Part shown: positions 12,181 through 57,969 of the stretch, one piece after another
Layout: each line of letters starts with the position of its first letter
Numbering within the stretch: the first letter of the stretch is position 1
NCBI GenBank assembly: GCA_934096275.1
Contig: CAKOLK010000001.1
Coordinates: forward strand, 15,876 to 79,875
Length of the DNA stretch: 64,000 bases
DNA from: an uncultured Bacilli bacterium
Lineage (GTDB): Bacteria > Bacillota_I > Bacilli_A > RF39 > UBA660
Direction: 5' to 3'
The notes under the pieces: model-generated
What the model was told of the DNA's origin: nothing
Database searches by the model: none
The model's input: only the letters and a program-made list of their open reading frames with translations
Position numbers and translations under genes: made by a program

Positions 12181-13243
12181 TCAATCAGTAAGTTGATATG
12201 GTTGTTCCGAAGATCCATTTCCACTTGAAATCTTCACGTTAAATGAAAGACTTAGGACTGGGCGCACGGCATACTCGTTGTATTCGACGTTGCCGAAGTA
12301 GACGCTACCGTCATCATTAACAAGGAAAGCGAGGCGATCAGCTTCCGAAACCTGTGGAAGTAACCATGTAGTTACACTTTTATCTAACCAATTATTTGCT
12401 GTTTTACAATTTACAGAAGAAATATACTTATATAAACTGTTTGTACATTCTTTTGAAGCCGCATATCCATAGTCACTCGCATACATTAATGCTATTTTTT
12501 TATTTGCATCATTTTGTATTATTGGATTTGTTACATAATAATATCCTGTTCTATTTGCTTCATTTTTTCTTTCGTATTGCCACATTACATCCGATATCAC
12601 ACTTGCTTCTTTGTATCCTCCAAGATAATATTTTGTTGTTCCAATCATGTTTTTTGCATCACTTGTTAATGTATTATAATAATCATTATTTAAATATGTA
12701 TTTAATGTTCCTGTTACCCAATTGTTATACGTTTCAGTTGTTGTATCTTCTGTTTTATTCCAATATTTATTTCCTATTGAAGTATCTTTTATTATTTTAA
12801 TTCTATTTTCTACATTGCCATCTGTATCCTCGGTTGGTATTATTCCTATTATTCTCCATACTTCATTATTAAAAGTTACATAATTGTTTACATTTCCTCC
12901 ACGATATCTATACTCTGTTGCAAATCTTTCATCCACTTGAAGTGTATCATCTATTTCATGGGTTACTTTTTCTAATCCTCCTGTTCCTACATTAGATTCC
13001 GCAAAGTATAAGGCATTGTCTTTAGCTTTAACATATATTTTGATAGTATTCTTTGATTCTATACTACTACTCCATTTTGCATATGATGTATTTGTATAAT
13101 TATAAGAAATAATACCCGTTAATAAAAGTACAAAAATACCTATTAATGATAATAGATATTTATTATACTCTTTTACATCTTTAAATAAAGGGTTTATCTT
13201 ATAAGTATTTTGCCCCCCCCCCATACGAATATTTGTTTTCCAT
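12181..13243 (-). CDS. poly-G-gated surface-protein family, member 1 (short class); phase-OFF from the SD-proximal start in this assembly
   Basis: Signal anchor YLLSLIGIFVLLLTGIISYNY+TNTSYAKWSSS, then a ~280-aa domain shared with members 2-4 (TEYRYRGG..NNYVTFNNE.WRIIGIIPTEDT; KKIALMYASDYGYAAS; VRPVLSLS). GGAGG (13251-13255) lies 7 nt before the ATG at 13243. From that ATG the G10 tract reads MENKYSYGGGAKYL-stop. The long ORF is in frame only with ATG 13257 (inside the SD) or with the TATG at the tract edge. Confidence 0.8.
13213..13222 (-). repeat. homopolymeric G10 tract (C10 on the plus strand) in codons 8+ of member 1
   Basis: Counted by hand: tg-cccccccccc-atacg. Confidence 0.85.
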
Positions 13244-13273
13244 AATTTTACCTCCATAGTTTCTTATAAGTTA

Positions 13274-13367
13274 ATTCTATAACAAAAAAAGCACTTTTTC
13301 AAGTACTATTTTTCTCATTGATTCTTCTACTCAACAAACTTGACACGCAAACAATTATTGCTATATT
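13274..13367. promoter_or_regulatory. back-to-back divergent promoters (member 1 on minus; small-ORF cassette A on plus)
   Basis: Minus strand: TTGAAA (13297-13302), 17 nt, TAGAAT (13274-13279), with the near-palindrome GTACTTGAAAAAGTGC (13291-13306) over the -35. Plus strand: TTGACA (13340-13345), 16 nt, TATATT (13362-13367). Confidence 0.6.
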
Positions 13368-13373
13368 TATATT

Positions 13374-13606
13374 GCATGTTCGTTATGGGCGTCGGCTTCG
13401 CTACTTTTTCAAGAAAGCGAGGTGATGTATAATGAGTAGAAAGAACGACTTGATTTGCATCTTGCTTATTATCATCCTTTTCTTATTAATTATCATCTAT
13501 AGATTAATCTAAGTGTTTTAATTAATAAAAAATGCGACGTCTCTCTAATATGGGAAACGTCGCTTCAAAACACAATTGAAGCTGACGTTCATAGCAAACG
13601 TGCTTC
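13374..13606 (+). other. predicted structured small mRNA, type I toxin-like (cassette A)
   Basis: The 5' element (13374-13399) starts at the predicted +1. It can pair with the 3' element (13578-13606) over 26 positions: 20 Watson-Crick, 5 G-U, 1 mismatch. CUUCGCU (13396-13402) pairs with AGCGAGG (13416-13422), covering the SD. A central hairpin lies at 13534-13563. Confidence 0.55.
13432..13512 (+). CDS. 26-aa hydrophobic peptide MSRKNDLICILLIIILFLLIIIYRLI (candidate type I toxin)
   Basis: GAGGTGA lies 6 nt before the ATG. The peptide has a charged N-terminus plus one TM-length hydrophobic run. It is conserved with cassette B. Confidence 0.55.
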   Translation: MSRKNDLICILLIIILFLLIIIYRLI

Positions 13607-26352: not shown

Positions 26353-26429
26353 TGGTAGCGACGGAGGGGATCGAACCCCCGACCTTCCGGGTATGAACCG
26401 GACGCTCTAGCCAGCTGAGCTACATCGCC
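26353..26429 (-). tRNA. tRNA-Met (anticodon CAT), elongator-like; tRNA-Ile2 (lysidine) not excluded
   Basis: Reverse complement GGCGATGTAGCTCAGCTGGCTAGAGCGTCCGGTTCATACCCGGAAGGTCGGGGGTTCGATCCCCTCCGTCGCTACCA. It folds as a cloverleaf (D stem GCTC/GAGC, anticodon stem TCCGG/CCGGA, T loop TTCGATC) with an encoded CCA. It lacks the three G:C pairs of initiator tRNA. Confidence 0.9.
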
Positions 26430-35757: not shown

Positions 35758-36462
35758 TTAACTAAGTAGTTTAATTAACATTGGTCCAAGTAACAGTAAT
35801 AGTAATAATGGTATAAAAAATATTACTGATACTATACTTATTTTTACTGGCATTTTACTAATTATTGCTTTAGTCTCTAATACTCTTTTTTCTCTTAAAT
35901 AGTCTATTTGGTTATACATAGTTTCCACTATATCATTACCAAAAGTATTAGCTTGTTGAATATTTAATATTATATTATTTACTGTATCACTAGGTATTCT
36001 TTTTCTTAAATCCTCTAAAGAACTATTTAGATCTTTTCCAAGTGTTATATCTTTTAATACTTTTTGAATCTCTAGTGATAAAGATGAATCTATATTTCTT
36101 GAAGTTATTTCTAGTGATGTTTTAATAGTCCTTCCTGCCTCAAGAGAAAGCGCAAACACTTCAAAGAAATAAAGAGCATCTTGTTCTAGTACTTTTCTTT
36201 TTTCATTTATTTTAGTATCTAGTACAATTGGTATAAATAATACATATACTAAAAATGCAATAATTGGTGCGAGTAAGTAACCAAAACTCAAGAAATATAA
36301 TATCACAAAAAAGACTAAAATAGAAGACACTAATCTAATATTTAATAATTTTATTGCATCATATTTAGAGTCTATTCCTAAATATGAAACTTTTTCTTGC
36401 ATCTTTTTAATTTGTTTTGCACTATATATTTTATATTCTATAATATTTTTTTTATTTCTCAT
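35758..36462 (-). CDS. tadC: Tad/type II secretion F-family inner-membrane protein (TadC-like)
   Basis: Polytopic GspF-like protein at the distal end of the Tad operon. Confidence 0.65.
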   Translation of the reverse strand: MRNKKNIIEYKIYSAKQIKKMQEKVSYLGIDSKYDAIKLLNIRLVSSILVFFVILYFLSFGYLLAPIIAFLVYVLFIPIVLDTKINEKRKVLEQDALYFFEVFALSLEAGRTIKTSLEITSRNIDSSLSLEIQKVLKDITLGKDLNSSLEDLRKRIPSDTVNNIILNIQQANTFGNDIVETMYNQIDYLREKRVLETKAIISKMPVKISIVSVIFFIPLLLLLLLGPMLIKLLS

Positions 36463-36463
36463 G

Positions 36464-37465
36464 TTACCACTCTCTTATCTTTACTATTTTCTTTACTAGT
36501 ACTATGTATATTATATATATTAGAATTATTAAAACTAATATTATATTACCAAGTGGCTCTTTAATAAGGGGTATAAAGTAAGTAGGATCCATAAAATAAA
36601 TAAGTACAAATATTATAAATGGAATAGCAACAAGTACTTTAAATACAAAATTAGATAGTGCAAGGGTTGAGTTCATTTCATCTTTTATTCTTTTTCTTTC
36701 TATAAAGCTTCTTTCAATCGAAGAAAATATCTTAGTAATTTTACCACCAGTTTCATTTAGTATTATTAAAGATGATGCCATATATTTTACTTCTTCTAAT
36801 TTAACACGAGAAGCAAATCTATCAAACACTACCTCTAATTCCAAACCATAAGTTAAATCAATTAATATTTTTTTAAATTCATTACTAATTGGACCTTCTA
36901 ATTCTGTTGATACTAACTCTACTGCTTGCATTATACTTCTTCCAGATTTAAAAGCATTATTCATAATAATAACTGCTTTTAAAAAATCTTGTTCTATTCT
37001 TTTTTCTTCTTTCTTTTCTCTTATTTTTAAAAACACATCAAGAATAAAGAAACCAAATAAGAATGATATTAGTATTTGAAAAAACGAAAACATTTTAAAC
37101 TTTAATATGTTAGATATTATACTTAAAAGTACTGCAAGTATTGAGAATAATATCTTTTTAGATATAAAATCCATACTAGTTTGTTTATGGGTATCGTCTA
37201 CCACTACGAATTTTTCATATTTTTTGCTATAGTCATTACAAACTTTACTTTTACTAATAGTTTTACTAATTGATTTAATAACTGAGTAATATAAGTTTTG
37301 TAGTTTTTCTATAAATGATATTGGTTTATCTGATAAAGCTGTAATAGAAAAACTAGATATTCTTTTTTCTTTTGATATTGAATTAAGTATTTTTAAAGCA
37401 AGTAAAAAGACAATAATTATTACTAAAATTATTATAAATTGTAAGGTAATATATAATTTTTCCAT
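36464..37465 (-). CDS. tadB: Tad/type II secretion F-family inner-membrane protein (TadB-like)
   Basis: GspF-like cytoplasmic domain (AFKSGRSIMQAVELVSTELEGPISNEFKKIL) between TM segments. Confidence 0.7.
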   Translation of the reverse strand: MEKLYITLQFIIILVIIIVFLLALKILNSISKEKRISSFSITALSDKPISFIEKLQNLYYSVIKSISKTISKSKVCNDYSKKYEKFVVVDDTHKQTSMDFISKKILFSILAVLLSIISNILKFKMFSFFQILISFLFGFFILDVFLKIREKKEEKRIEQDFLKAVIIMNNAFKSGRSIMQAVELVSTELEGPISNEFKKILIDLTYGLELEVVFDRFASRVKLEEVKYMASSLIILNETGGKITKIFSSIERSFIERKRIKDEMNSTLALSNFVFKVLVAIPFIIFVLIYFMDPTYFIPLIKEPLGNIILVLIILIYIIYIVLVKKIVKIREW

Positions 37466-37484
37466 AGTTATTGTCTCCTTTCTA

Positions 37485-38822
37485 TTACATTAATTTTTCA
37501 AATATATCATCTACATCTGTTATACCTTTGCTTTTGATCTTACTATATACTTTAGGAACATACTTGTATAAAACAAATGAACCATTTACTTCACCACTTT
37601 CAGTAAGACCTTTTTGTTTGAATGTAAATATTTCTTTTAAATTAATTCTATCATCTTTTAGTCCACATACTTCACATATTGAAGTAATCTTTCTTTTACC
37701 ATCTGATAATCTTTCTATATTAACTACTATATCAATAGCATTTTCTATATATTCTCTTATTGCTAGTACTGGTATTTGAATACCTGCCATAAGTACCATT
37801 GTTTCAAGTCTATTTAATGCATCTGATGCTCCATTAGCATGTAGTGTTGATAAAGAACCTTCATGTCCTGTATTCATTGCTTGTAACATGTCAAATGCTT
37901 CTTTACCACGTACTTCTCCGACGATTATACGATCAGGTCTCATACGAAGAGAATTTATTACTAAATCTCTTATTGTTACTTCTCCTTCTTTTTCATAATT
38001 CATTGTTCTAGTCTCTAAAGAAATAACATGATTTTGTTTTAGTTTTAACTCTGCTGCATCTTCAATTGTAATAATTCTTTCGTCTCCCGGTATGAATGAT
38101 GATAAAACATTAAGTACTGTAGTTTTACCAGAACCAGTTCCACCACATACTAATATATTAAGTTTAGCTCTTACACAAGCATCTAAGAATCTTGCCATAT
38201 ATGGTGTAAATGTACCATTTCTAATTAAGTCATCCGCAGTAGATAAGTTTTCTTTAAACTTTCTTATAGTAAGCACTGGCCCATTAAGAGCAAGCGGTGG
38301 TATTACAGCATTAATTCTAGATCCATCACTAAGTCTTGAGTCAACCATAGGATTAGCTATATCTATAGTTCTTCCAAGTGGTTGAATCATTCTTTGAATT
38401 GTTCTTATAATATGTTCATCATTTATAAAAGATACTGATTCATCCTTAATAATCTTACCATCTATTTCAATATAGATTTCATCCGGTGCATTAACCATTA
38501 TTTCAGTAATACTTTTATCATCTAATAATTCAGTAATTGGACCATATCCATTTATTTCATTTTCAATTAAATTAAATATATGGTTTCTTTCTAAATTAGT
38601 TAAATCATAACCTTCGAGTGATGTATTAATCTCATCATTAATGTATTCTTCAAGATACTTACTATCTGATAAGTCATTATCTATTATATTTTGTATTATT
38701 TTATTTCTTAAAGAATCTAATAAGTTTTTATCTTTAAAAACACTGTAATCACTAACTTCAGAATTAATGTAATTACTTTTTTTATTTTCTATTTCAAATA
38801 AATCAGAAAGTGTTTTTCTCAT
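37485..38822 (-). CDS. cpaF: CpaF/TadA family pilus-assembly ATPase
   Basis: Walker A VCGGTGSGKTT, Asp box ERIITIEDAAEL, His box ...TGHEGSLSTLHAN. Confidence 0.9.
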   Translation of the reverse strand: MRKTLSDLFEIENKKSNYINSEVSDYSVFKDKNLLDSLRNKIIQNIIDNDLSDSKYLEEYINDEINTSLEGYDLTNLERNHIFNLIENEINGYGPITELLDDKSITEIMVNAPDEIYIEIDGKIIKDESVSFINDEHIIRTIQRMIQPLGRTIDIANPMVDSRLSDGSRINAVIPPLALNGPVLTIRKFKENLSTADDLIRNGTFTPYMARFLDACVRAKLNILVCGGTGSGKTTVLNVLSSFIPGDERIITIEDAAELKLKQNHVISLETRTMNYEKEGEVTIRDLVINSLRMRPDRIIVGEVRGKEAFDMLQAMNTGHEGSLSTLHANGASDALNRLETMVLMAGIQIPVLAIREYIENAIDIVVNIERLSDGKRKITSICEVCGLKDDRINLKEIFTFKQKGLTESGEVNGSFVLYKYVPKVYSKIKSKGITDVDDIFEKLM

Positions 38823-39565
38823 TTAGACACCTCCTCAATAAGTTTTTTTGCAATCAATTCATAATGTTTATTATCTTTTCTATTATTTAATAAAATAGGT
38901 ATTTGTCCTGATGATATTATTTTATCTATTTTACTAATATGAAGTGTTTTAGGTATAGTAAAATCTATATTAGATTTAATAATAGTTCTCATGTCATAAG
39001 AATTATAATAGTTTCTACCTAGTATTGATTCATTTAATACAGTAGAATAATTAGTATAATTAGCATCTTTTAATATTGACACAAAAGTTCTAGTATTTTT
39101 AAGTGAATATAAATCATTACTAAATAGGACTAATATACTATCAGAATTATCAAATAAAATAACATTAGTTTCATTTAAAACATGAGTAGTATCTATAAGA
39201 ATAGCATCATATTTATATAAAACACTATCTAAGATTAAAGGAATATATTTAGAATCAATCTTATTAGCTTGTCTAGGATCTTTTGGAGCAGAAATTATAT
39301 CAATATTATCATTATATTTATAGATATAGTCTTCAACTTTTTCATACCTATTATTAGATAAATCAAGTACTAAATTAAAAACTGTTTTATCACATTTTAA
39401 GTTTAAAGAAAGAGCAATATCTCCCCCAAATAAGTCAAAATCAATAATTAAAACTTTATATCCAAGTAAATGGTAAGATCCTGCTAAATTAAGAGTAGTA
39501 ATAGTTTTTCCTGCACCACCCGTTGTGGAAGTAATCGATATAATTTTTCCTTTATCCTTTTTCAT
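38819..39565 (-). CDS. ParA/MinD-like ATPase of Tad loci (TadZ/CpaE-like)
   Basis: Deviant Walker A ISITSTTGGAGKTITTLNLA. It lies directly upstream of cpaF with a 4-nt overlap. Confidence 0.7.
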   Translation of the reverse strand: MKKDKGKIISITSTTGGAGKTITTLNLAGSYHLLGYKVLIIDFDLFGGDIALSLNLKCDKTVFNLVLDLSNNRYEKVEDYIYKYNDNIDIISAPKDPRQANKIDSKYIPLILDSVLYKYDAILIDTTHVLNETNVILFDNSDSILVLFSNDLYSLKNTRTFVSILKDANYTNYSTVLNESILGRNYYNSYDMRTIIKSNIDFTIPKTLHISKIDKIISSGQIPILLNNRKDNKHYELIAKKLIEEVSK

Positions 39566-39567
39566 AA

Positions 39568-39927
39568 TTAACCCTTCTTTATTCTTATTTTATTGTTTGA
39601 ATCAACATATCCTGTATAAACAGAATCTAAGTTGTATTTTTTAATTCCTATAATAGAACCAAATATTGAATCCACTTCTTTTTTTAGATGTACTTCACTA
39701 TTTGTAATATTTATTATTTTAATATCGGCATCATTATCTAATATTAGTTGTTCTATTTCTATTTTGTCTTTATTCATTAAAACATAATTCATTGCAATTG
39801 AGCTAAGATTATCAAGTTTATTATCATTTATTTTAATATAACAAGTATCAAATACATAAGCAAATATTGCAATAAATACTGGTATTAAAAAGACAAATAA
39901 TACTAATGACTGACCTTTATTGTTCAT
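39568..39927 (-). CDS. TadE/TadG-like pseudopilin
   Basis: MNNKGQSLVLFVFLIPVFIAIFAYVFD: a Flp-type leader ending in G, then a hydrophobic helix. Confidence 0.6.
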   Translation of the reverse strand: MNNKGQSLVLFVFLIPVFIAIFAYVFDTCYIKINDNKLDNLSSIAMNYVLMNKDKIEIEQLILDNDADIKIINITNSEVHLKKEVDSIFGSIIGIKKYNLDSVYTGYVDSNNKIRIKKG

Positions 39928-40264
39928 TAAATAACACCCTCTTGGTAGTTATCTTATATGGATTTTCAAAAAATGATGATGCGAATGGTGTAATAAGATT
40001 TACTTTTTTAGTAAGTACTATTTCAAGTTTATCTCCTTGATAATTATACTTCATCGTAGTATCAGAATCTAATAATTTATTTATCTCATCATAACTTTTT
40101 CCATTTTGTTGATAAATAGATACCTCATCCATTACTCCCTCAAGACTGTTTTTGTTATAAAAAACAAAAGCAAAGTCTATTACTATGAATAGTATCATAA
40201 TAATAATTGGAAGTATAATTACAAATTCCACCAAAGCTTGACCTTTATTATTTTTTTTCAACAC
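39917..40264 (-). CDS. TadE-like pseudopilin
   Basis: ..KKNNKGQALVEFVIILPIIIMILFIVIDFAFVF. The start is placed at GTG/TTG after GGAGAAGG, which gives a leader like its neighbours. The ORF-track ATG at 40306 would overlap flp by 59 nt. Confidence 0.6.
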   Translation of the reverse strand: MLKKNNKGQALVEFVIILPIIIMILFIVIDFAFVFYNKNSLEGVMDEVSIYQQNGKSYDEINKLLDSDTTMKYNYQGDKLEIVLTKKVNLITPFASSFFENPYKITTKRVLFNEQ

Positions 40265-40451
40265 AATAGCCTTCTCCAGCTTTAGCACCTTTTTGATACT
40301 CTTCACCCACTAAAGCACAAGATGATTTAGTAATAGAATCTTTTAAATAACCTCCTAAAAATGTTACTAAAGATATAGCAAGTACACTTATTAATGCAAT
40401 TATTAAAACATATTCTACTAAAGCTTGACCTTTATTATTTAGTCTCATCAT
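40248..40451 (-). CDS. flp: Flp-family type IVb pilin
   Basis: MMRLNNKG|QALVEYVLIIALISVLAI: the G/xxxxEY Flp processing motif. 67 aa. Confidence 0.8.
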   Translation of the reverse strand: MMRLNNKGQALVEYVLIIALISVLAISLVTFLGGYLKDSITKSSCALVGEEYQKGAKAGEGYCVEKK

Positions 40452-40866: not shown

Positions 40867-41959
40867 TTAAATCGATAGTTGATATGGATCTTCATATGTT
40901 CCAATGCCTGAAGATATTCTTACATTTGAAAAGAGAGTTAGAACTGGTAAAATGGCAAGTTCTCTTTTTCTGACATCGCCCCCATTACCAATACCACCAG
41001 TAGGACCCAAGTGAAAAACAACTCCATTACCACCGGCACATGGTGAAAGCATCCATGTAACCTGGCTCTTATCTAACCAATTATTTGGTGTTTTACAATT
41101 AATAGAAGTATCGTAGCCACTTAAACTGCCTGAGCATTCTTTTGATGCAGCATATCCATAATCACTTACATACATTATTGCTATTTTCTTACTTGCATCA
41201 TTTTGCATTATTGGGTTTGGTTTATAATAATACGCGCTTTCATATGCATTATTCTTTCTTTCATATTGCCACATCTCATTTGCATTTGCATATATATTTA
41301 TATATCCACCAAGATAATATTTTGTTGTTCCTATCATGTTTTTAGCATCATTAGTTAATGTATTATAATAATCGTTGTTTAAATATGTGTTTAATGTTGC
41401 TCCTGTCCAGTCGTTAAATTTTTTACCACTGTCATCACATTTTTCATAATCACTAGTTGTGCAATTGTTCCAAAAATATTCTCCAAGTGAATTATTTCTT
41501 ATTATTTTAAATCTATTTTCTACATTACCATTTGTGTCTTCAGTTGGTATTATTCCTATTATTCTCCATAATTCATTATTAAATGTCACGTAGTTATTTA
41601 CTACTGAGTCTCCTCCACGATATCTATATTCTGTTTTAAATCTTTCATCTACTTGTAATGTACTATCTATTTCATGTGTAATTTCTTCAAGCCCACCAAT
41701 TCCTACATTATCTTTTGCAAACGCTAAAGCATCTTTTTCAGTCTTGACACTAAGTTTTAATATATTTTTTGATTCCACACTACTACTCCATTTTGCATAT
41801 GATGTGTTTGTATAATTATAAGAAATAATACCACTAAGTAATAGCACAAAAATACCTATTAATGATAATAGATATTTATTATATTCCTTTATATCTTTAA
41901 ATAAGGGGTTTATCTTTCTAGTATTTTGCCCCCCCCCCATACGAATATTTGTTTTTCAT
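40867..41959 (-). CDS. poly-G-gated surface-protein family, member 3 (short class); phase-OFF from the SD-proximal start
   Basis: GGAGG (41967-41971), 7 nt, ATG at 41959, then MKNKYSY plus G10 gives ...GGGAKY-stop. The ORF-track protein starts at the TATG on the tract edge (41940). Confidence 0.8.
41929..41938 (-). repeat. homopolymeric G10 tract of member 3
   Basis: Hand count: gcc + cccccccc + at gives 10 C. Confidence 0.85.
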
Positions 41960-41989: not shown

Positions 41990-42185
41990 ATTCTATAACA
42001 AATATATTTCTTTTTCAAGTAAAATTTTTTCAATTTTTTGCATTTTTATATAAACAAGACTTTTGATACAAGTTTTCTTATTCAAAAATAAAAATTGCCC
42101 TAAGGCAAATCTTATTTTTGTAATCATTTTCTCTTTCAAAACTTAAAATTGGTCGTTTGACAAGTATTTTTCTTTAGTTTATAGT
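41990..42185. promoter_or_regulatory. divergent promoters (member 3 / cassette C) separated by an extra ~140-bp AT-rich spacer
   Basis: Minus strand: TTGAAA (42013-42018), 17 nt, TAGAAT (41990-41995); the palindrome is degenerate here. Plus strand: TTGACA (42157-42162), 17 nt, TATAGT (42180-42185). Confidence 0.55.
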
Positions 42186-42192
42186 GGTATTA

Positions 42193-42400
42193 GCACGTAT
42201 CTTTGGGCGCCGACTTCATTATCTTTTTAAAAGAAATGGGGTGATAGTTATGAAAGATAAGATTTTCTAATTTTAGCACTGCTTGTGATTATTTATTTAT
42301 TATTAAAGTAATTTAAAATAAATGCGACGTCTCTCTGATATAGGGAAACGTCGCATCGCTGAAAATAAACATCGAAGTCGGCGTTCAAGGAACGTGCTTC
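42193..42400 (+). other. predicted structured RNA, cassette C (the ORF has decayed)
   Basis: 5' element at 42193-42217 and 3' element at 42374-42400, with ends perfectly complementary (GCACGU.../...CGCCGACUUC). SD-region stem CUUCAUU (42214-42220) / AAUGGGG (42235-42241). Central hairpin at 42324-42354. Confidence 0.5.
42250..42270 (+). pseudogene. truncated remnant of the small hydrophobic ORF (MKDKIF-stop)
   Basis: The ATG after GGGGTGA is at the homologous position to cassettes A and B, but a stop follows six codons later. Other frames give no TM-like peptide. Confidence 0.5.
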
Positions 42401-44534: not shown

Positions 44535-45597
44535 TTAATCTATTGATAATTGGTATGGTTCAGAACTTGTTCCTACTCCTCCAGATATTTTTGCATTTGA
44601 TGATAAAGTTAATGTTGGGCGTATTGCATACTTATAGACACCAACATCAAAATTACTGACATTACCTGTTGAAGAAATATAAAACGCATAAATTGAATAA
44701 CTTGAATACTGTGAAAGCAACCACGTATCTTCACTTTTGTCTATCCAATTGTTTGGTGTTTTACAATTTGTATCTTGATTATATTCAGATATGTCGCTTG
44801 TACATTTCTTTGATGCAGCATATCCATAATCACTTATATACATTAGTGCTATCTTTTTAGAAGCTTCATTTTGCATTACTGGATTTGTATCATAATAGTA
44901 ATTACTTTTATTTGCCTCATTTTTTCTTTCATATTGCCACATTACATCTGATGTCATTTTTGAATCTTTATATCCTCCGAGATAGTATTTTGTTGTTCCT
45001 ATCATACTTTTTGCATTACTTGATAAGGTATTATAATATGTAGTATTTAAATATGTATTTAGTGTTGCTATTAACCAGTTATTAGAATTATCAGTGTTAT
45101 TACGTGTGCTATTCCAATAAAAATTTCCAATAGATTCATCTTTTATTATTTTAAATCTATATTCTACATTATCAGATGTATCTTCAGTTGGTATTATTCC
45201 TACCATTCTCCATAACTCATTATTAAATGTCACGTAGTTATTTACATTCCCTCCGCGATATCTATATTCTGTTTTAAATTTTTCATCTACTTGTAATGTA
45301 TTATCTATTTCATGTGTAATTTCTTCAAGTCCACCAATTCCTACATTATCTTTTGTAAACTCTAAAGCACTCTTCCCAGTTTTAATATGTATTTTGATAA
45401 TATTTTTTGATTCAGTACTGCTACTCCATTTTGCATATGATGTATTTGTATAATTATAAGATATTATTCCTGAAAGTAATAACACAAAAATACCTATTAA
45501 TGATAATAGATATTTATTATACTCTTTTATATCTTTAAATAAGGGGTTTATCTTATAAGTATTTTGCCCCCCCCCCATACGAATATTTGTTTTCCAT
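44535..45597 (-). CDS. poly-G-gated surface-protein family, member 4 (short class); phase-OFF from the SD-proximal start
   Basis: GGAGG (45605-45609), 7 nt, ATG at 45597, then MENKYSY plus G10 gives ...GGGAKYL-stop. The long ORF is in frame only with ATG 45611 (inside the SD) or the TATG. Confidence 0.8.
45567..45576 (-). repeat. homopolymeric G10 tract of member 4
   Basis: Hand count: gcccc + cccccc gives 10 C. Confidence 0.85.
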
Positions 45598-49261: not shown

Positions 49262-49455
49262 AAAAACAGTTATATCCCAAAGGGACGAATAACTGTTAAA
49301 TCCGCGGTACCACCCAATTTATTATATAAAATATAATCTCTTTATTTATAACGGCAATCAACCGGCTTGTTCTACTTAATTCCTCAAGCACTCATGGTGT
49401 CTTTCATATTTAATTTTATACTAGTTCTCACCAAACACTAACTCTCTTAAATAAA
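49262..49455 (-). promoter_or_regulatory. T-box riboswitch leader of aspS (specifier GAC)
   Basis: The minus strand carries AGAGAG/GGUGAGA stem I elements and GAAAGACAC, which contains the GAC (Asp) specifier followed by A. The T-box core is AAUUGGGUGGUACCGCGG, and the terminator is AACAGUUAU...AUAACUGUU+UUUU. Confidence 0.8.
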
Positions 49456-49506
49456 CTTAAATATTACTTTTCCAATCAACGTTTATGTATAGATTATAGA
49501 ATATTT

Positions 49507-51838
49507 TTAGTTTGTTGTCAAGACTGCACGAGTTGAGTAGTCACTGTGCGCTTCACCATCGCTGGTGTTGAAGAAGAACGCGCCGGCGTAATCACCATTG
49601 TAATAGATCCCACCACGGAAGAGCCAAGGGATGAAATTGTTAGAGAAAACAGCTTGATCTGAATACCATGATTTAGTGGTTGAAGATGTTGGTGACATTT
49701 CAATTGTGGCGTCTCCTAACTTTCCTCTTGTATATTCTGTTTTACTTGTTCCATAACTATATTTATCATAATATTTCTTGTTTGGGAATGCATATGTTCC
49801 TGTAAATGATGTTTTATCATTTCCTAAATATCCTGTAAATGCTGAATTTTTATTACTAGATGTTGAATATCCACTCATCTGTTGTCCATTACTATGTACC
49901 ATATTACCCATCACGTATTCACATGTTCCACCACTCATGTCATATACTCCATATACATTTCCTGTTGTTGATGCGCTTTGTCCTAAAGTTGTTGTGTATC
50001 CATTACATGTTGAACCCCTACTTGCTGAACCTTCACTTTGTGGTCCACATCCTGTTGTATTTGTATTTGCACTATTTATTGCTATTTCTTTATTTATTCC
50101 ATATTTACTATGTGATAGATATGTTACTGCTCCCCATTCCATATTCTTCATCATATGAGTTTCAGCGGTTGTTGCAATACCATATTGGTTGCCACTTTCT
50201 CTCATCTTTTGGATTCCATTAAAGAATGTTCCTACTTGTGCTCCTCTCCATGATGTTACGTTTGGTTTTATTTGAGGTCTTATTGTTTGTAGGTTGCAGT
50301 CTGTACCTATTGCTACATAGTTAGTAGGTGTACATGTAGTATCACTTGATACTTCAAACTTTCCTACCCATATTCCTGTTAATCCTTCCCCTGTTTCTCT
50401 TACATTGTTATCATTTTTATCCCACCAGAATGCTGGATGCGTATAGGTTGATGTTCCTGCTTTTAATGATCCATTTGTACTATCTGTACATGTTTCTGAT
50501 GTACTACTAGTTCCAGTTACTGCGTCTACACATTTTATTGTACCACTACTATTTGTACCGCTTTCAAATTTTATTTTGATTTCTTCTGGTGTATTAGTGT
50601 TTAAATATGTATATGTATATCTTGGTATCCACACCCACATTGTATTGATACTTAGCATTGGTATCTCTGTTCCCGCATCTGCACTTACTATATCACTTCT
50701 TTTGCATACTGAACTACTGCAATTTTTTGTAGTTCCATCTTTTAGAGTTAACTTAGTCACAGGCACACCTTCTTTAGTATATTTATCAGCACTTGTTACG
50801 CTATGATTGCTAACTGAATTAATTTTATACATGGTACTACAAGTAGTGTTGTCTGTACAATGATATTTATCAATAACATCAGTATCAACATCATCATAAG
50901 ATGTATTTGTGAGTGTGTATAATCCTGTATCTTCATTAAATGTGTAAGATTTTCCAAACATGTAATTAGGTGGATAGAATTGTCCTATGGAATACATAGT
51001 ATAATCACTACCATCATAAGAATCTATAAAAAATGCTTTGTTAGAGCCAAATATATTAAACATGATTATGGCATATCCATATTCATCAATGTAATCGCTT
51101 AGTTTCATGCCATTGTTATCATATAAGTCTGAAAGAGATCCTTCTATTACTCCACTGCTGAAATCATAGTCTTCTTCCCATGTGTAATCATCATAGGACA
51201 ATAAGTTTACTTGACCATCCAATTGAGCCTCAGTTATGATAAGAGAACCGCTTGGACTTGATATATTATATATTCCAAATGCCATGTTATCAGTTTTATA
51301 ATATACCATTAAATTAACATAATCATATTCTGTGTTATTTATTGTAACTGGAGCATTCCAACCAAATTCAAGACTTGAAGATAAATTAAGCGAAATATTT
51401 TTATCAACTTTTTCTTTATACTTACTACTTAGCGCATCTGTTACTGTTACTGCGTTAGCCCACATTTTATTATTGTAATCATACCACTTATTAGACGCGT
51501 TTGAATTGGTTGCGTCTGCTTTTCTCCATACATTGTTATTACTATCATAATATACTGGTATCATATTACTTGTTAATACTGGTTTATTTGCACCGCTTGT
51601 ATCAAGGTTTACGTTGTTGCTTTTTACATAAAGTTTCAATACATTTTTAGATTCTACACTACTACTCCACTTTGCATATGATGTATTTGTATAATTGTAA
51701 GATATTATTCCCGAAAGTAATAGCACAAAAATACCTATTAATGATAATAGATATTTATTATACTCTTTTACGTCTTTAAATAAGGGATTTATTTTATAAG
51801 ATTTTTGCCCCCCCCCCGAACGAATTATTGTTTGTCAT
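49507..51838 (-). CDS. poly-G-gated surface-protein family, member 5 (long class); unambiguously phase-OFF in this assembly
   Basis: GGAGG (51846-51850), 7 nt, ATG at 51838, then MTNNNSF plus G10 gives ...GGGAKIL-stop. The main frame (..QKSYKINPLFKDVKEYNKYLLSLIGIFVLLLSGIIS..) is closed upstream by TGA and has no ATG/GTG/TTG before the anchor. The tract edge here is TTC-G, so no TATG exists. Confidence 0.8.
51808..51817 (-). repeat. homopolymeric G10 tract of member 5
   Basis: Hand count: gccc + ccccccc + g gives 10 C. Confidence 0.85.
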
Positions 51839-52444: not shown

Positions 52445-53040
52445 GTCAACAACCCTGCACTCAAAGTGCAGGGCTTGTGTTTACTGCTGAAAGCAGTTTA
52501 TATGACTAAAAGTCAATTTGTTATTTTAAATGTTTTTTCTATATCATCTGTTTGATCTTCTATATATGCCTTTATTATTTCTTGTGTCACTGTTCCTACA
52601 CTTCTACAAAAATACCCTGGACTCCATAAATATTGTCCCCAATACTTTCTTTTTAATACATTGAACTCTTCTTGCAATATCTTTGAACTTCTTCCCTTTA
52701 GATATTGAACCAGTTTTGATGGCGCTATTGTCGGCGGACAACTTACTAACAAATGCACATGATTTCTTGTTATATTTCCTCGTATAATAGTTATCCCTCG
52801 GGCAACACATCCCTGCATTAATAATACTCTTAATCTTTGTGCTACTTTACCATTTAATACTTCATATCTATATTTTGTTGTCCAAACTATATGATATTGT
52901 ATATCATATTGTGTATGACTTCCTTTTCTCATCCAAATCCCCTGCCCTTGGCTAACTATTATACTACAAGACAATTAATTTGTCAGCCAGTTCTAAAAGA
53001 ATTTACGCGCTAAATCACGTGGCCTGGTACCAGGGGTTTA
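52445..53040 (-). mobile_element. IS200/IS605-family element (tnpA only), boundaries approximate
   Basis: A Y1/HUH transposase gene flanked by subterminal hairpins: CCCTGCACT-caa-AGTGCAGGG (52453-52473), ACTGCT-gaa-AGCAGT (52483-52497), and palindrome CCTGGTACCAGG (53023-53034). It is locally GC-richer than its surroundings. Confidence 0.6.
52513..52932 (-). CDS. tnpA: IS200/IS605 family transposase TnpA (Y1 HUH)
   Basis: YDIQYHIVWTTKYRY, HUH motif NHVHLLV, and catalytic-Tyr region WSPGYFCRSVG. The start is at MRKGSHT.... Confidence 0.88.
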   Translation of the reverse strand: MRKGSHTQYDIQYHIVWTTKYRYEVLNGKVAQRLRVLLMQGCVARGITIIRGNITRNHVHLLVSCPPTIAPSKLVQYLKGRSSKILQEEFNVLKRKYWGQYLWSPGYFCRSVGTVTQEIIKAYIEDQTDDIEKTFKITN

Positions 53041-56373: not shown

Positions 56374-57969
56374 TTATTTTAACATTGATAATACTGAACG
56401 TGAAGCACGAGTGCTAATTGAAGAACCATCGCTAAAGTAAAAAGCGAATATACCGGCATAAGTTGTATGGCTATAAAGACCACCACGAACAAAAAATGAA
56501 TAAGTATCATATGGATAATATGTATAATCTTTATACCAACCACCATTTGAAAGTGAATTATTTTCTTGAATTTCTTGCGTTGAATCTCCAATTAGCCCTG
56601 AGCCATTTGTTGTTTTTTCTGAGTAATAATTATAATGATTATAATACTTTGATAGTGGATAGGTAGAAGTCCAGTTTTCAGCTTTACCAACTCCGAAACT
56701 ACTTGAACTTCCACTGCTCATTGTATAGTCCCATGCTCCTCCACTCATATCGTATATTCCTGTAATATTACCTGTTGTTGATGCAATTTTGTTCATATCT
56801 CTTGTTGTGCTTTTTGTGTTTGTATTATACTCAAGCAAATATCCATCGTATGTATAAAAACCATATGTATTATATTGTGTTGTTGATGTTTGATCTTCAT
56901 ATGTCTTATTTATTTCTGTTGATCCTCCAACATCTCCTCCACTTCTTCCAGTATAACATCCTCTTGAATTATTGATATTTATTTCTTTATTTATTCCGTA
57001 TTTAGAATGTGATAAATATGCTATTGCTCCCCATTCTATATTTTTGATCATGTGTATATCTATATCGTTTGTGTCTCCTGTTAGACTTCCATTCCAATTA
57101 AATGTTGTGCTATTGCTTTGTTCAAACCCATATATATTATTTGAGGCCTCCATTTGTCTTATGTCTTTAAACATGTATGATATTGTTTTATATCTTAGGG
57201 ATTGTACATCTGGTTTTATTATTATTATTGAATCTTCTGTAGAAGTTTTTGTTGGTATTGTTGTTGCACTATTTTCAAACTTGCCTACCCATATTCCTGT
57301 TAGTTCTTGGTCTCCAAAAGTAAATGCTGGATGAGTGCAAGTAGTAGAATTAGCTTCTAAATTAGCATTATTAACATATGTATTGAAACATTTTGCTGTA
57401 CCAGTGCTTTCTGTGCCACTTTCAAACTTTATATTTATATCTTGAGGTTTTATTGACGGAAAGATAGTATATTTATATCTTGGTATCCATACCCACATTG
57501 TATTTATATCATCCATTTTTATTTCTGTTCCTATATCTGCATTCAGATATTTTGTTCTGTTAGTAGAGCTTACTGTTACGGCGTTTGCCCACATCTTATT
57601 ATCATAATCGTACCATTGATACTTTTTACTGCTATTACTAACATCAGCTTTCTTCCATGATGAGCTTTCAGTGTCATAATATATTGGTATCATATTACTT
57701 GCAAGAAATGGCTTATTGGCTCCACTTGTATCTAAATTTGATTTTATATATAATCTTATAGTTTTGTTTGATTCAATACTACTACTCCATTTTGCATATG
57801 AGGTGTTCGTGTAATTATAAGAAATAATACCACTAAGTAATAACACAAAAATACCTATTAGTGATAATAGATATTTATTACAATCCTTTATGTCTTTAAA
57901 TAGGAGGGCTACTTTGCTAGTATCCCTTCCAAGCGAATATTTGTTTATTATATTTTTCACAGTCATCAA
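56374..57969 (-). CDS. surface-protein family member 6 (long class) with no poly-G tract and no shared promoter cassette
   Basis: MMTVKNIINKYSLGRDTSKVALLFKDIKDCNKYLLSLIGIFVLLLSGIISYNYTNTSYAKWSSS.... CTT GGA AGG GAT ACT AGC occupies the place of the tract. The body is homologous to member 5 (ANKP.L.SNMIP.YYD; MWVWIPRY.YT; THPAF; LTGIWVGKFE; MKN.EWGA..YLSHSKYGINKEI). Confidence 0.85.
   Translation of the reverse strand: MMTVKNIINKYSLGRDTSKVALLFKDIKDCNKYLLSLIGIFVLLLSGIISYNYTNTSYAKWSSSIESNKTIRLYIKSNLDTSGANKPFLASNMIPIYYDTESSSWKKADVSNSSKKYQWYDYDNKMWANAVTVSSTNRTKYLNADIGTEIKMDDINTMWVWIPRYKYTIFPSIKPQDINIKFESGTESTGTAKCFNTYVNNANLEANSTTCTHPAFTFGDQELTGIWVGKFENSATTIPTKTSTEDSIIIIKPDVQSLRYKTISYMFKDIRQMEASNNIYGFEQSNSTTFNWNGSLTGDTNDIDIHMIKNIEWGAIAYLSHSKYGINKEININNSRGCYTGRSGGDVGGSTEINKTYEDQTSTTQYNTYGFYTYDGYLLEYNTNTKSTTRDMNKIASTTGNITGIYDMSGGAWDYTMSSGSSSSFGVGKAENWTSTYPLSKYYNHYNYYSEKTTNGSGLIGDSTQEIQENNSLSNGGWYKDYTYYPYDTYSFFVRGGLYSHTTYAGIFAFYFSDGSSISTRASRSVLSMLK

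Follow-up and report, generated by a model that had tools for sequence, protein, structure and literature searches.

The DNA considered here is a stretch of 64,000 nucleotides (nt) from an uncultured Bacilli bacterium (assembly GCA_934096275.1, contig CAKOLK010000001.1, positions 15,876 to 79,875), referred to below as the window. Its minus strand carries five paralogous genes (members 1 to 5) with a long run of G residues close behind the start codon, and a sixth paralogue from which the run is absent (Table 1). Most of the detail concerns member 1.

The member 1 locus and the shared 5' cassette

The minus strand at the start of member 1 reads ...ACT ATGGAGG TAAAATT ATG GAA AAC AAA TAT TCG TAT GGGGGGGGGG CAAAATACTTATAAG... 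A Shine-Dalgarno (SD) motif, a 7-nt spacer, an ATG, six further codons and a run of ten G residues (G10) thus follow one another exactly as described in a sequence-only reading of the window, which had also proposed that translation from this ATG reaches a dead end. The product at G10 is indeed MENKYSYGGGAKYL*, with 14 codons. The tract forms codons 8-11 of the open reading frame (ORF) starting at ATG 13243. Replacement of the tract in silico by G9 or G12 gave proteins of 353 or 354 amino acids (aa), MENKYSYGGG(G)QNTYKINPLF..., in agreement with the frame restoration predicted earlier, and products of 14-16 aa were obtained with G8, G10, G11 and G13. A change of one repeat unit toggles member 1 between a full-length ORF and early termination.

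Two further ATG codons noticed in the sequence-only reading are present, and at G10 both share the frame of the long ORF. The start used in the ORF list (358 aa, 12181 to 13257) is the ATG of ATGGAGG, which overlaps the GGAGG motif, has no SD upstream and lies about 17 nt past the -10 hexamer. The tract-edge ATG, formed by TAT and the first G of the tract, is located 26 nt from the SD.

All five tracts occupy identical codon positions of one conserved 5' cassette, which consists of the promoter-like TTGAAA-17-TAGAAT, GGAGG, exactly 7 nt, ATG, leader, tract and anchor, in this order. The leader has 7 codons, M-x-N-[KN]-[YN]-S-[YF], and the tract is followed by CAAAATAC... The promoter-like block is conserved in all five tract-bearing members (six-sequence alignment) and in related loci of metagenome-assembled genomes (MAGs). 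The SD-ATG spacing is 7 nt in 5/5 members, and the strong SD motifs of other genes in the window are mostly found 7-8 nt before the start. The RNA of the 5' untranslated region and leader is unstructured, and less structured than shuffled controls (z=+1.79). The membrane anchor KYLLSLIGIFVLLL[TS]GIISY is present in members 1, 3, 4 and 5, and a different hydrophobic segment is found at this place in member 2. The anchor segment of member 1 is hydrophobic in translation, forms a helix in the AlphaFold model and is invariant among members 1, 3 and 4; its membrane topology is presumptive.

As assembled, all five members are out of frame (four with G10 and one with G11) and end after 13-17 codons, and at G9 or G12 all five open (353 aa for member 1; the others are given in Table 1). 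Member 5 has TTC before the tract, and therefore no tract-edge ATG, as well as ACGGAGG in place of ATGGAGG, and no in-frame start is found ahead of its transmembrane segment. The upstream ATG of member 3 meets a stop after 5 codons. In the sixth paralogue, the ..NKYS.. leader is in frame with the transmembrane anchor and the ectodomain is of the same type as in member 5; this gene can presumably be translated constitutively. Its upstream region is its own and lacks the conserved promoter block.

Members 1, 2 and 5 have a further conserved block of approximately 80 nt upstream of the cassette, in which a near-consensus promoter (TTGACA-16-TATATT, with TG) is located on the plus strand and directed away from the gene.

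Table 1. Coordinates of the cassette, the paralogous genes and other features in the window
Feature	Position	Strand	Remarks
SD motif GGAGG, member 1	13251-13255	-	Direct read; 7-nt spacer TAAAATT, then ATG 13243
SD-proximal ATG (13243-13241) and six-codon leader, M-E-N-K-Y-S-Y	13223-13243	-	Read; conserved in the family
G10 homopolymer tract, member 1	13213-13222	-	Switch; full length from ATG 13243 requires G9 or G12
TAA closing the 14-codon peptide in the G10 frame	13199-13201	-	After GCA AAA TAC TTA
Upstream ATG within ATGGAGG	13255-13257	-	Start in the ORF list; in frame at G10
Tract-edge ATG (TAT plus first G)	13222-13224	-	In frame only at 3n+1 G's
Promoter-like site TTGAAA, 17 nt, TAGAAT	13274-13302	-	Predicted; consensus scan, 10/12 matches
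Predicted transmembrane anchor YLLSLIGIFVLLLTGIISY	13102-13158	-	Residues 29-47 of the G9 protein
Member 1 body 3' of the tract	12181-13212	-	343 codons and stop
DUF6273-like ectodomain, member 1	about 12247-12765	-
Member 2	32177-33849	-	G11 tract 33839-33849, OFF; 563 aa at G9
Member 3	40867-41938	-	G10 tract 41929-41938, OFF; 363 aa at G9
Member 4	44535-45576	-	G10 tract 45567-45576, OFF; 353 aa at G9
Member 5	49507-51817	-	G10 tract 51808-51817, OFF; 776 aa at G9; different ectodomain type
Sixth paralogue, without tract	56374-57969	-	GGAAGGG (57930-57924) replaces the G run
Conserved block upstream of the cassette, member 1	13310-13390
Promoter TTGACA-16-TATATT within this block	13340-13367	+	Directed away from the gene
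tRNA gene	26356-26429	-
Tad/Flp pilus operon	35758-40450	-	Directly downstream of member 3
T-box leader	49278-49488	-	130 bits
IS200-like Y1 transposase gene	52513-52974	-	About 0.7 kb upstream of member 5

The window has a G+C content of 26.8%. Runs of C on its plus strand are 1-5 nt long, and then 10, 10, 10, 10 and 11, with none of 6-9; these five runs, all G on the minus strand, compare with an expectation of 1.35e-3 runs of at least 10 under a first-order Markov model of the window. In 522,555 bp of related loci, all G runs of at least 7 lie within the cassette (49/49). Among the long ORFs of the window, glycine is encoded by GGG in 6.9% of cases (GGA, 47.6%; GGT, 41.7%). Since GGG is rare and GGG-GGG-GGG is conserved, selection appears to act on the DNA tract and not on the peptide. 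A chance origin of the tracts was considered and ruled out by the jump in run length, the Markov expectation, the rarity of GGG and the identical codon positions in five copies.

Members 1-4 share an ectodomain of approximately 300 aa, whose matches to Pfam family PF19789 (DUF6273) are weak and below the threshold (23.3, 21.7, 17.9 and 14.3 bits for members 1, 4, 3 and 2, respectively, against a cut-off of 23.5 bits); many close homologues carry a precomputed PF19789 match. An extra module of member 2 gave a sub-threshold dockerin-like match (22.3 bits; cut-off, 22.9). Another ectodomain type is shared by members 5 and 6 (E=7e-63), neither of which has a match in Pfam or NCBIfam, and member 1 is also without a match in NCBIfam. 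The similarity of PF07666 (M. penetrans paralogue family 26) is confined to the transmembrane region, with 13.7 bits (E=0.065) against a cut-off of 37.2. Because the ectodomain types differ between members (1-4 versus 5 and 6), the cassette is modular; in the database protein P0116, leader and tract are fused to yet another anchor type. The 343-aa body as a query returned 2,098 database clusters (E<=1e-5), of which 120 were listed, none of these with a functional name. A 75-aa N-terminal query, which returned 21 short fragments, was used for N-terminal variants and not for counting.

DUF6273 has been described as a C-type-lectin-like domain targeted by diversity-generating retroelements (DGRs) in gut phages (PMC10743442), and as the N-terminal domain of the Thomasclavelia ramosa immunoglobulin A (IgA) peptidase (PMC12402451). 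The AlphaFold model of member 1 is poor (mean pLDDT 56.9). The top match in Foldseek, and the only near-significant one, is the T. ramosa IgA peptidase (9qa6; E=0.012, TM score 0.29), which should be taken as a lead only; a profile search of PDB sequences gave no match.

In protein databases, gene callers have assigned false N-termini of at least four kinds to this family, namely MGGGQ..., MEVKLWKTNIRMGGGQ..., MLLLTGIISY... and longer read-throughs (P0024-P0061 and others), and the choice among them depends on tract length.

Tract length in other assemblies and gut genomes

The same chromosomal region was retrieved from other metagenome assemblies by exact-protein look-ups of neighbouring genes. 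Contig k141_480215 of the ENA assembly ERZ27287251 matches the window over 9,642 bp in all but one base; its member 1 has G9 (ON) and was called as a 353-aa gene, versus G10 in the window. Member 2, with G11 in the window, has G10 in both ERZ27287251 and ERZ28615129 (SAMEA4766079). Over 12,018 bp, locus L005 differs from the window by three single-nucleotide polymorphisms (SNPs) and by G10 instead of G11 at member 2. Approximately 42 kb could be compared between same-strain assemblies, and two of the three indels fall in 51 bases of tract. Tract length is thus polymorphic between near-identical genomes at members 1 and 2, and the flanks of member 1 are identical. An independent sample assembly (L094) also has the G10 allele of member 1.

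Same-strain assemblies are separated by few SNPs, and these are concentrated in or beside the 5' cassettes (33722-33860 at member 2, 45480-45543 at member 4 and 42099-42358 at member 3), and tens of kb outside these clusters are identical, which suggests gene conversion between paralogous cassettes. Contigs of other assemblies stop inside member 2 (at about 33040-33100 of the window) or within approximately 100 bp of a tract, and contig ends near a tract are also seen in related loci (such as L044, L074, L075, L076, L079, L084, L086 and L091). These breaks are attributed to the repeated cassette and the paralogous domains, and possibly to tract heterogeneity.

The survey was widened to gut metagenomes and to MAGs of uncultured "Bacilli bacterium" from the gut (Hadza and other samples), in which a single scan of species-representative genomes added 65 loci and a single scan of metagenome contigs another 23. 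Tract lengths among the 58 unique alleles were G10 in 33, G9 in 12, G11 in nine, and G8 and G13 in one each; the remaining two are an interrupted G6 allele and a chance match. Full-length ON alleles with G12 were found at the protein level (e.g., MTNKYSYGGGGQNT...). All seven G9 alleles with sufficient downstream sequence are full length (346-489 codons). Most OFF alleles have kept an intact body: of the 39 with enough downstream sequence, 36 regain an ORF of 349-774 codons at G9. In nearly all alleles, both OFF frames terminate within 10-15 codons of the AAC leader codon. In a given assembly, roughly 0 or 1 of the tract-bearing copies is ON (locus L010 in MAG CAKOJO, member 1 in ERZ27287251 and no copy in the window).

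Two alleles with an interrupted tract are in frame, L077 with TCT GGG GGG CGC CAA and L087 with TCG G8 A CAA, and on these sequences both would be locked ON. As the sixth paralogue and the interrupted-tract alleles are in frame from leader to anchor, it is the SD-proximal ATG that sets the real frame.

A second cassette type was also observed in related MAGs and metagenomes (L009, L011, L012, L017, L018, L020, L024, L041, L044, L055, L063, L077, L084, L089 and L091). It has the same promoter-like site and a GAGGAGG motif, but its leader ATG is separated from the SD by an insert of 45-100 nt, which starts with GTG TAA and is enclosed by AGGTGT...ACACCT. A hairpin bridging SD and ATG in these cassettes was examined and rejected, with pairing in two of three folds and energies no better than those of shuffled controls. 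One family member (L066, CAZVVV010000077.1) is located on a contig of 4.8 kb that was assigned to "uncultured Muribaculaceae" (Bacteroidota), probably through a binning error, because every other match lies in Bacilli MAGs.

Probable phase variation and alternative explanations

Member 1 is probably a contingency (phase-variable) gene, which would be turned ON and OFF by slippage of its tract. The sequence-only reading had proposed a translational switch by slipped-strand mispairing, and support for this proposal comes from the G9 allele in an otherwise identical assembly, the one-G difference at member 2, the range of G8-G13 alleles, the intact OFF ORFs and the in-frame relatives without a tract. 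Anatomy, frame logic, tract polymorphism between genomes, ON and OFF alleles and ORF preservation were all observed, and every sequence-level feature of a simple sequence repeat (SSR) contingency locus is present in member 1, including a mononucleotide tract of about 7 or more within the 5' coding region.

According to the proposed mechanism, the promoter-like site and GGAGG-7nt-ATG would drive translation of the 7-codon leader straight into the G tract. With 3n G's (G9 or G12), the ribosome would go on to translate a single-pass membrane anchor and an extracellular DUF6273-like domain of 300 aa (ON), and with G10 or G11 it would stop after 14 or 16 codons (OFF). Slipped-strand mispairing in replication would add or remove one G, and lineages would switch heritably and reversibly. 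From these patterns we infer slippage as the mechanism, as well as the switching rate, the surface location of the proteins and the selecting agent (antibodies of the host, phages or the availability of ligands). At least five genes in 64 kb, and dozens per related genome, begin with this cassette, which would create a combinatorial, mostly-OFF surface repertoire.

However, several observations weigh against phase variation. The tract lengths were compared between consensus assemblies only, and homopolymer lengths in the consensus of a metagenome assembly are subject to some error. Members 3 and 4, which are 3.6 kb apart, have G10 in all three same-strain assemblies, as does member 5 in the two that cover it. 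Moreover, the modal length, G10 (33/58), is an OFF length and ON alleles account for approximately 21%, which could mean that G10 is not fully OFF. A G10 mode is also in keeping with a repertoire that is largely silent at the level of the population consensus.

If G10 were partly active, the switch might have three levels: high expression from the SD-proximal ATG at G9 or G12, low expression of a product with an altered N-terminus from ATG 13224 or ATG 13257 at G10, and none at G11. Both of these ATGs are in frame in the G10 allele of member 1, both products would retain the transmembrane anchor, G10 is the commonest length, and MGGGQ... or MEVKLWKTNIRMGGGQ... products are often called by gene callers. 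Such a scheme is nevertheless unlikely, as the tract-edge ATG is remote from the SD and would be read across by ribosomes loaded at ATG 13243, ATG 13257 lacks an SD altogether, TAT precedes the tract in just 24 of 46 alleles, and neither member 5 (no in-frame start before the transmembrane segment) nor member 3 (upstream ATG followed by a stop) fits it. The sequence-only reading had suggested a weak intermediate state from the tract-edge ATG; its distance from the SD, its occurrence in 24/46 alleles and its absence from member 5 do not support this state as a designed feature. The tract-edge ATG is rather an incidental property of some members, from which low-level initiation may occur in member 1. 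Expression of G10 alleles at some constitutive level might also result from recoding on the G run, through RNA-polymerase slippage or +1 ribosomal frameshifting. Long homopolymers are sites of RNA-polymerase slippage, and G10 is predominant, and stable at members 3-5 in every same-strain assembly compared. Yet the required shift is inconstant, given that alleles from G8 to G13 occur and orthologous loci differ between samples; the RNA is without a stimulatory structure, and the zero-frame codon after the tract (GCA) is neither a rare codon nor a stop. Neither the fixed frame offset nor the stimulatory element of a programmed frameshift was found, and the DNA polymorphism would be left unexplained. 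Recoding is therefore very unlikely, although slippage could still render the OFF states leaky.

The remaining alternatives question the alleles themselves. Homopolymers of 10 are error-prone, and exactly one G separates the window from another assembly, as would be expected if the real gene were an in-frame G9 and G10 a consensus miscall. But the G10 of member 1 is reproduced in the independent sample assembly L094, G10 is found in 33 of 58 unique alleles from various studies and assemblers, and G11 and G13 also occur, which makes an artefact of sequencing or assembly extremely improbable; the tract itself is real and conserved, and a miscall would alter the state of an allele and not the nature of the locus. 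That the five genes, all out of frame as assembled in the window, are decaying pseudogenes frameshifted by happenstance is almost certainly wrong: the frameshift is always at the same tract, 36/39 OFF alleles are without any other lesion over 349-774 codons (scattered stops or indels in most bodies were looked for and not seen), ON alleles of the same loci exist, and the promoter-like site, SD and leader are conserved.

Beyond the switching of member 1, the family might represent an undescribed antigenic-variation-like system in commensal gut Bacilli, with dozens of DUF6273-like surface proteins per genome behind a portable poly-G cassette, a modal G10 that is poised or leaky and one slip from ON, and a shifting mosaic presented to host IgA or phages; the proteins would possibly be lectin-like and bind antibodies or glycans. 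This wider proposal is rather doubtful, and, if true, it would imply that multi-locus SSR phasomes are not peculiar to pathogens.

Relation to known systems and genomic surroundings

Phase variation by repeat slippage is textbook knowledge for Campylobacter, Neisseria, Haemophilus and mycoplasmas. The opa genes of Neisseria contain CTCTT repeats in the region coding for the signal peptide. As in the present family, they form a surface multigene family in which every copy carries a separate repeat within the part that encodes the N-terminal leader, copies are switched independently by frameshift with most of them OFF, and a conserved 5' region is combined with a variable exposed part. On the other hand, opa has a pentamer repeat, encodes outer-membrane beta-barrels and belongs to another phylum, whereas a mononucleotide tract and single-pass anchored ectodomain proteins are found here. 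Campylobacter jejuni NCTC11168, which has 29 poly-G/poly-C tracts of at least 7 (PMC4965091), is similar in being a gut-associated organism with an AT-rich genome and G/C homopolymers of approximately 8-11 confined to a set of genes, in which intragenic tract length sets ON/OFF by frameshift and lengths cluster at G9-G11. In this proteobacterial pathogen, however, the tracts are at varied positions in unrelated genes, mostly for glycan-modifying enzymes, and rates and phenotypes have been measured; here, the tracts belong to one portable 5' cassette at the start of paralogous genes for membrane-anchored proteins, and the host is an uncultured Gram-positive-type (Bacilli) commensal. PCR is reported to inflate slippage 20-35-fold (PMC4965091). 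By analogy, the mechanism would resemble that of the C. jejuni poly-G genes, and the architecture appears closest to the Neisseria opa family.

Mycoplasmas are placed inside the class Bacilli by GTDB, and their Vlp family has a poly-A tract in the promoter. The likeness includes a low-G+C lineage, large paralogous surface families, a conserved 5' region and combinatorial ON/OFF. The Vlp switch is not a coding poly-G frameshift, however, the products are lipoproteins and not signal-anchor proteins, and the match to the M. penetrans family MpPF26 is weak and far below the cut-off. Vlp is among the variable surface lipoprotein families of Mycoplasma listed in a review (PMC11868660). The DGRs of gut phages (PMC10743442) are comparable in that a DUF6273-like ligand-binding domain is targeted by a dedicated variation mechanism in gut microbes, but they rewrite the binding site by mutagenic retrohoming, whereas paralogy and ON/OFF slippage would operate here; neither a reverse transcriptase nor a template repeat was seen in the vicinity of the members.

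A literature search, which was not exhaustive, gave no paper in which this family, or switching by poly-G in the lineage, is described. What is new is the host (an uncultured lineage of gut commensal Bacilli), the protein family and the portable cassette, and the principle is already known. The review cited above asks whether many-locus phase variation is restricted to pathogens or reflects database bias (PMC11868660), and an uncultured human-gut Bacilli lineage in which 64 kb contain five switchable copies, and whole genomes many more, bears on this question. In addition, because its genes are mis-started or truncated by callers (MGGGQ..., MEVKLWK..., MLLLTGIISY...), the family is fragmented in protein catalogues; strain-level analyses will show spurious differences in presence or absence, and assemblies break at the cassettes. 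The family also offers a ready marker for tracking ON/OFF selection in the gut from metagenomic reads, e.g., by IgA or phage.

The genes flanking the family are housekeeping genes (polC, aspS, ddl and the Tad pilus). No match to the cassette pattern was found in viral contigs, and a phage origin was rejected on this null result and the housekeeping flanks. Rfam gave no family across the cassette, and its only hits elsewhere in the window are a T-box leader and a tRNA gene. The T-box leader is located upstream of the aspartyl-tRNA synthetase gene and immediately downstream of member 5, and the transposase gene on the other side of member 5 has a PF01797 match in the matching locus L004. The Tad/Flp pilus operon encodes Flp, TadE, a ParA-like ATPase, a T2SSE ATPase and two T2SSF proteins, and a DUF192 gene on the opposite strand lies between member 3 and this operon.

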